DNA of 64,000 bases, taken from NCBI RefSeq assembly GCF_056746865.1, contig NZ_CM163382.1. One strand, given 5' to 3'. The notes below the pieces were generated by a model. The model saw nothing but the letters and a program-made list of their open reading frames with translations. It made no database searches and was not told where the DNA came from. The position numbers were made by a program, and so were the translations under genes. This document shows, piece by piece, positions 57,176 through 57,836 of the stretch. Numbering within the stretch: position 1 is the stretch's first letter; each line of letters opens with the position of its first letter.

Positions 57176-57785
57176 TATTTGTCCTTAAATCATAAATAAT
57201 TAGAATATAAGCCAACTGAAATATTGACACAGAGCTTCTTCAATTTTTACAGCGACTTTTAAGCAGCCAATGAACAGATTGTCAGCTCCTGAAAAAACAG
57301 GTTCCTTGATATAATATTCTTTGGCGCGCCGAACATGTTGATATTTTAATATGACTGATGCAATTTAGATTTTCTAACATTCAAAGTTAGAAAAACTTAA
57401 TTAATAGGCGGGGATAATAATTACTGAAACTTTTCATCTCAATAATGAAGAATAAGTTCAAAAAAACGGCAAATGCAAAAATCCAGTGAATAAATTAAAG
57501 TCAAAAACAATCACATGGCGATGACTATCTTGTGATATTAATTTCGCAACGATATAATATTAAAACACTATAATTAATATAAAATCAAGACCCAATAATA
57601 TTTTTCACTTTAGTCATTATTTACCTAAAAATGCTTCCAGAAAAATAATTTATGAATAAAAGTAAATTCTCTTTCAATATGTAAATTTTTACAAATAAAA
57701 GCGTCATGCCGTATAAAATAAAGACCATTCGATCACAAGCGGATCATTGTTAGTACAATAAGATTGCATAAATTCAACATTGCCA
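57176..57785 (-). promoter_or_regulatory. AT-rich promoter/regulatory region of the yfc fimbrial operon
   Basis: About 610 bp of very AT-rich non-coding DNA 5' of yfcV, typical of H-NS-bound fimbrial promoters. Confidence 0.5.
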
Positions 57786-57825
57786 GAAAAAAATAAAGGC
57801 CCGATAGATTACACCAGCGGGCCTT
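57786..57825 (-). terminator. Intrinsic terminator downstream of sixA
   Basis: Minus-strand hairpin aggcccgctggtgtaatctatcgggcct followed by ttatttttttt. Confidence 0.75.
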
Positions 57826-57836
57826 GTGCATGCGTA

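Follow-up and report, generated by a model that had tools for sequence, protein, structure and literature searches.

According to Wurpel et al. (2013, PMC3559732), who cite Korea et al. (2010), many chaperone–usher fimbriae of commensal Escherichia coli strains are cryptic and repressed by H-NS, and the yfc operon is functional but cryptic; the yad and yeh operons are described there in the same terms. In K-12, the spacer between sixA and yfcV, the first gene of the yfc operon, is promoter island 2453647_489, one of 78 such islands (Panyukov and Ozoline 2013, PMC3661553), which have many potential start points and bound RNA polymerase and yield little transcript. The island is marked as H-NS-bound in Table 1 of that study (the 'K' mark, for the Kahramanoglou MG1655 and Oshima W3110 data sets), and most other cryptic fimbrial upstream regions stand in the same table. 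The K-12 spacer also binds RpoD holoenzyme in genomic SELEX (systematic evolution of ligands by exponential enrichment), with the constitutive promoter TTGAAA-17-TATAGT (Shimada et al. 2014, PMC3946193, Table 2), and that work marks it as holding an H-NS site, with a yfcV peak in Figure 3. Here we analysed the counterpart of this spacer at positions 57176–57836 of a 64,000-nucleotide stretch of contig NZ_CM163382.1 (NCBI RefSeq assembly GCF_056746865.1), hereafter the window. We consider it about 80% probable that the spacer consists of the sixA terminator and an H-NS-silenced, AT-rich control region of the yfc operon. The most AT-rich tract of the window would then belong to a known class, namely the H-NS-silenced control regions of cryptic core fimbrial operons. 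The same reading is already known for the K-12 version of the locus, and the region is an ordinary one.

The spacer is exactly the interval between two minus-strand genes, bounded by the yfcV start codon (cat on the plus strand, 57173–57175) and the sixA stop codon (tta on the plus strand, 57837–57839). Its 661 bp have a guanine-plus-cytosine (GC) content of 29.5%, compared with a window mean of 51.5%; this is the lowest 661-bp stretch of the window, and only 0.09% of all 661-bp windows reach a GC content this low. Over the 610 bp from 57176 to 57785 the value is 0.28. The spacer is the second-longest intergenic gap of the window, after lrhA–alaA (919 bp), in a ranking made after correcting for an insertion that shifts window coordinates relative to the matching strain 118UI (below). 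It is clearly the most AT-rich of the long gaps, the remainder of which have GC contents of 0.38–0.42. These values confirm the first-pass annotation, made from the sequence alone, in its description of a long, strongly AT-rich non-coding region upstream of yfcV. The only other low-GC patch in the window is the divergent lrhA–alaA spacer (6745–7663, GC 0.38).

All published data on binding of H-NS and RNA polymerase concern K-12, and silencing of the window version is probable on the basis of composition, synteny and a conserved promoter block. At least four haplotypes of the spacer occur in E. coli; they have diverged deeply yet share length, GC content and a few short islands. The window haplotype was present in 633 of 5426 complete E. 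coli genomes (at least 80% of the interior length; 634 with any match, using sensitive blastn), and other types among the complete genomes were those of K-12 (3072), B2 (1205) and O157 (429). Relative to K-12, the flanking core genes are 95–97% identical and the yfc genes 64–75%, and the divergence between E. coli lineages begins at about the sixA stop codon. Nevertheless, across six haplotypes examined the spacer was 566–680 bp long with a GC content of 26–32%, despite a mean pairwise identity of only 0.29 in its distal hypervariable, AT-rich segment (57600–57785, minus strand), which is essentially unalignable and carries the only two GATC sites of the window haplotype (57731–57734 and 57742–57745). 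Thus, length and composition are conserved while the sequence is free to change, which fits a long AT-rich platform as the main requirement, as H-NS silencing would need. The first-pass annotation had proposed the silenced promoter of a cryptic chaperone–usher operon, and this is supported by the cryptic state and by the published H-NS binding of the K-12 spacer, detected both in chromatin immunoprecipitation (ChIP) data sets and by genomic SELEX.

At the sixA end, the spacer contains an intrinsic terminator (57787–57825, minus strand), a GC-rich hairpin AAGGCCCG...CGGGCCTT (57796–57825) followed directly by UUUAUUUUUUU. The terminator begins 12 nt past the sixA stop codon and has a GC-rich stem of 8–9 bp, and the 66-nt stretch that includes it folds with −19 kcal/mol (z −2.55). 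Five very different haplotypes of the spacer retain the hairpin, and 7 of its 14 pairs show compensatory changes (the E. whittamii sequence was left out of this count). We conclude that it is the Rho-independent terminator of sixA, separate from the fimbrial promoter. Therefore, the earlier view of the whole interval as promoter DNA applies to about 600 bp but not to the last ~50 bp, which hold the terminator. Our consensus scan for terminators was limited to loops of at most 8 nt and hence missed this hairpin, which has a longer loop; the scan and folding together revealed no further intrinsic terminator in the spacer.

Upstream of yfcV, the alignable part of the spacer contains a conserved promoter cluster (57535–57597, minus strand) of overlapping sigma-70-like elements, with blocks at 57576–57597 and 57551–57563 that have pairwise identities of 0.72–0.82. 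In a five-haplotype alignment, TTGGGT (57590–57595) and TATAGT (57567–57572), 17 nt apart, stand where K-12 has its RpoD promoter and are the homologue of that promoter. This pair overlaps TTTATA-18-TATTAT (57583–57554) and a third element, TTAATA (57558–57563)-17-TAATAT (57535–57540), where a promoter-like pair occupies the same position in four of the five haplotypes. A start within the cluster would give a leader of ~350–390 nt. On the plus strand, TTGTGA-17-TATAAT (57530–57558) matches the consensus at 10 of 12 positions and its −10 element shares the conserved ATATTATAT block; this could be a divergent or a spurious antisense start. On the yfcV strand, the closest match to the sigma-70 consensus is TTGAGA-17-TATTAT (57414–57442, minus strand; 10 of 12), whose position is not conserved in other haplotypes. 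A looser scan gave 12 promoter-like sites on this strand.

The proximal half of the spacer (57176–57409) has an identity of ~0.6 and several short conserved blocks. Those within 57257–57404 on the minus strand (57391–57404, 57359–57374, 57338–57346, 57311–57326 and 57257–57281) are candidate operator or leader elements. The most conserved block of the spacer (57176–57210, minus strand) is part of a segment, 57149–57210, that has a pairwise identity of 0.91 and reaches 27 nt into yfcV; it includes the ribosome-binding site AAGGA (57182–57186), 6 nt ahead of the yfcV ATG. A weak −10-like element (TATATT/TATTCT), conserved in position ~30 nt upstream of the ATG, could mark a proximal promoter ahead of the ribosome-binding site.

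From these elements we propose the following model. Transcription of sixA would be stopped by the Rho-independent terminator in the first ~50 bp, with no read-through into the fimbrial operon, and the remaining ~600 bp (GC 28%) would act as the control region of the seven-gene yfc chaperone–usher operon. RNA polymerase would bind sigma-70-type promoters in the conserved block ~360–420 bp upstream of the yfcV ATG, and possibly also the weaker site immediately ahead of the ribosome-binding site. An H-NS filament over the long AT-rich tract would then occlude or trap the polymerase, keeping the operon off under ordinary conditions. Expression would require relief of silencing, e.g. by loss of H-NS, by over-produced AT-binding regulators such as TosR and BolA, or by integration of an insertion sequence. 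Over-production of TosR, a PapB-family protein, in CFT073 placed yfcV among the most strongly induced genes (table value 5.2; PMC5956150), and induction of BolA raises yfcV (PMC4337573). We searched the literature for studies aimed directly at the regulation of Yfc and found nothing on this control region.

Several observations weigh against the silencing model, or limit how far it extends. The K-12 haplotype is the only one with experimental evidence, and it is ~30–60% identical to that of the window across the spacer; blastn against K-12 aligned only the first 35 bp, and nothing between 57210 and 57841. Promoter islands are marked by overlapping promoter-like sites at very high density across 300 bp or more. 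The consensus scan found six promoter-like sites in the window haplotype, all within the spacer, compared with 3.6 ± 1.9 in shuffled sequences, which is not significant. H-NS nucleation motifs (TCGATAAATT / TCGATATATT-like, with at most two mismatches) occur at four sites for each motif, or 6 per kb compared with ~1 per kb in the window, but this excess is mostly explained by base composition, since shuffled sequences held 2.1–2.2 ± 1.4 (a difference of ~1.3 standard deviations). Helically phased A-tract curvature is a frequent, although not obligatory, feature of H-NS-silenced promoter regions. In the spacer, AA/TT power at 10–11.5 bp equalled that of shuffled sequences (0.68 versus 0.72 ± 0.30; P = 0.47), i.e. 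there were no phased A-tracts and no sign of strong static curvature. Expression of yfcV is higher in Shiga toxin-producing E. coli associated with haemolytic uraemic syndrome (PMC6033998); silencing is therefore not absolute, as some wild strains express the gene.

Phase variation was considered as an alternative. In a fim-like arrangement, a segment of the spacer would flip by site-specific recombination to make Yfc phase-variable, and the spacer does resemble fimS in being a long, AT-rich promoter region before a fimbrial major subunit gene; the fimE/fimA spacer also appears among the H-NS-bound regions listed in PMC3661553. The spacer also has several imperfect inverted repeat pairs 170–440 bp apart. 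However, the best distant inverted repeat scores 9, a score equalled or exceeded in 90% of shuffles, and the candidate repeats are not conserved in other haplotypes. Unlike fimS, the locus has no adjacent recombinase gene: the annotation of the 118UI record shows neither an integrase nor a recombinase in the 9 kb to each side, where the neighbours are sixA, fadJ, fadI and fimbrial genes. In all 633 genomes with the window haplotype, an 801-bp query that included both flanks matched as one co-linear piece, the same 633 matched the interior, and no assembly was inverted. An invertible switch is therefore close to refuted, and the first-pass annotation, which had stated that a fim-like switch could not be shown, was right on this point, with repeats within chance expectation and no orientation variants among these 633 complete genomes. 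A pap-like epigenetic switch, in which Dam methylation at two GATC sites competes with Lrp, is very improbable. Yfc is a pi-type fimbria of the same clade as Pap (PMC3032704) and the window haplotype has two GATC sites, but these are 11 bp apart rather than ~100 bp and lie in the unalignable distal segment beside the sixA terminator. Moreover, the number and position of GATC sites vary in every haplotype, that of B2 has none, and the annotation of the locus includes nothing resembling papI or papB.

A more probable alternative than these, although still an unlikely one, is that a dedicated regulator or a structured long 5′ leader acts through the blocks at 57257–57404 as the main control, with H-NS as a bystander. 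In favour of this, short blocks remain 60–80% identical between haplotypes amid randomised surrounding sequence, and in the consensus fold CCAAAGAATA pairs with TTCAATGG, two invariant blocks of partial complementarity. That fold is weak, however, with −9.6 kcal/mol over 258 columns for the proximal 245 nt and compensatory changes in 4 of 36 pairs, and the strongest local hairpin is restricted to one haplotype. A CsiR peak was reported by ChIP with sequencing in the K-12 spacer (coordinate 2454000), with yfcV 1.9-fold up after CsiR induction (PMC5217608), but the effect is small and comes from over-expression, and the peak may mean no more than that an over-produced factor binds AT-rich DNA non-specifically. 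The locus contains no regulator gene, and several data sets show the K-12 spacer occupied by H-NS. Similarly, it is doubtful that the conserved islands at 57535–57597 and 57257–57404 are Yfc-specific regulator sites or parts of a functional ~350-nt leader, with haplotype replacement producing lineage-specific expression of Yfc; if true, this would be relevant since yfcV serves as a urovirulence marker. That the spacer encodes its own small RNA or small protein is as improbable as the pap-like switch. There are promoter-like sites on both strands, and open reading frames of 20–35 amino acids on the yfcV strand, but the longest of these (57621–57728, 35 amino acids) lies within the segment of 29% identity and is thus not conserved; a single longer frame (62 amino acids) is on the plus strand and extends antisense into sixA. 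An Rfam search of 56000–59000 at E ≤ 1 gave no match, the sixA terminator is the sole intrinsic terminator found, and nothing is annotated inside the spacer in the three listed annotated records in which it is fully intergenic. The spacer thus holds no credible gene or known RNA, and H-NS silencing of the control region remains our preferred reading.

A short inverted repeat had been pointed out near 57365–57395 in the first-pass annotation. The repeat exists, as a palindrome at 57362–57402 with the core TTTCTAAC-N7-GTTAGAAA, inside a partly conserved block. Its arms (57362–57381 and 57383–57402) are 20 nt long and 85% complementary, with a perfect 9-bp core (57370–57378 and 57386–57394). When the region was shuffled with its dinucleotides preserved, 7% of the shuffles contained an equally long perfect stem, so that the repeat is no more than expected by chance. 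The palindrome folds with −11.2 kcal/mol in the window haplotype, compared with −1.4 to −6.4 kcal/mol and different pairings for the homologous segments of other haplotypes. As it is haplotype-specific, absent or weak elsewhere and within chance, we rejected it as a conserved RNA hairpin or operator.

The genes on either side of the spacer differ in their conservation. Upstream, on the same strand, sixA (57837–58322, minus strand) encodes a phosphohistidine phosphatase of 161 amino acids (Pfam His_Phos_1) that is 100% identical to K-12 SixA and 98–100% identical across the haplotypes compared. Downstream, yfcV (56609–57175, minus strand) encodes the major fimbrial subunit of 188 amino acids (Pfam Fimbrial, PF00419), which has 66–73% identity to the K-12, O157 and B2 alleles, compared with 89% between K-12 and O157. 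It is followed by an intact usher gene, a chaperone gene, three minor subunit genes and a gene for an adhesin of the StfH/YfcO family, and this gene set is the seven-gene yfc chaperone–usher operon. Over the 801 bp around the spacer (57100–57900), the window and the uropathogenic E. coli strain 118UI are 100% identical, and for most of its 64 kb the window agrees with the 118UI record at 99.98–99.996%. Of the two flanking genes, that record names one sixA and calls the other a fimbrial protein, which is yfcV in other records.

The operon of the window strain also carries an insertion sequence (IS), an IS3-family element of ~1.33 kb (50286–51609) that is missing from strain 118UI. It has overlapping plus-strand open reading frames at 50332–50742 and 50700–51605 and, judging from these two transposase frames, is probably IS2, although records annotate the IS3 family only. 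The element lies where the yfcP-like subunit gene meets the yfcO-like adhesin gene, and hence the adhesin gene of the window strain is cut off from the yfcV promoter region. Elsewhere, IS1 is found inside the sixA–yfcV spacer itself in E. coli ES8 (1551–2318 of its locus) and E. coli XJW9B277. In ES8 it sits 17 bp ahead of the yfcV ATG, immediately past the ribosome-binding site, and parts yfcV from its entire native control region. About 70 genomes had split matches to the 801-bp query and may hold further insertions.

The divergence of the spacer is part of a larger pattern, as the whole yfc operon (49280–57840) is hyperdivergent from K-12 and unalignable in parts, between core genes, with its right edge at about the sixA stop codon. 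The spacer of E. whittamii (~8700–9450 of its locus) is a mosaic in which the proximal ~250 bp are near the O157 type and the distal part differs, which suggests recombination inside the spacer. When one genome per species was searched for the conserved start of yfcV, only four loci emerged, all of them Escherichia DNA, with no out-group outside the genus. The window-haplotype sixA–yfcV DNA is also carried by JAIJJM010000567.1 (2180 bp), labelled as a Collinsella sp. metagenome-assembled genome; this E. coli DNA is almost certainly a binning contaminant.

A phase-variation switch is effectively ruled out for the spacer. The importance of the result beyond correct annotation is small. A by-product is a cross-haplotype conservation map of the yfc control region, comprising the sixA terminator, the promoter block, the proximal blocks and the ribosome-binding region, which can guide the placement of primers for 5′ rapid amplification of cDNA ends and of promoter deletions in studies of Yfc regulation. 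The comparison also shows that results from the K-12 spacer are not transferable base-for-base to uropathogenic lineages.

The closest described system is the K-12 spacer, which has the same locus, flanking genes and strand, a similar length and GC content (680 bp and 0.32, compared with 661 bp and 0.30), and the same terminator hairpin, promoter block (TTGAAA-17-TATAGT in K-12, TTGGGT-17-TATAGT in the window) and ribosome-binding region. In contrast, it is a distinct haplotype with a distal pairwise identity of ~0.3, and in the K-12-derived record examined yfcU, the usher gene, carries an internal stop and is a pseudogene, whereas the window usher is intact (883 amino acids). The other cryptic chaperone–usher operons of E. 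coli (yad, yeh, sfm, ybg, elf/ycb, yra and ecp) likewise have long AT-rich spacers before a fimbrial subunit gene, and yadN/folK, yehD/yehE, folD/sfmA, ybgD/gltA, ssuE/elfA, agaI/yraH and ecpR/ykgL carry H-NS marks in the same promoter-island table (PMC3661553). They are separate loci of unrelated sequence, and some have a regulator gene of their own (ecpR), whereas none is annotated at yfc.
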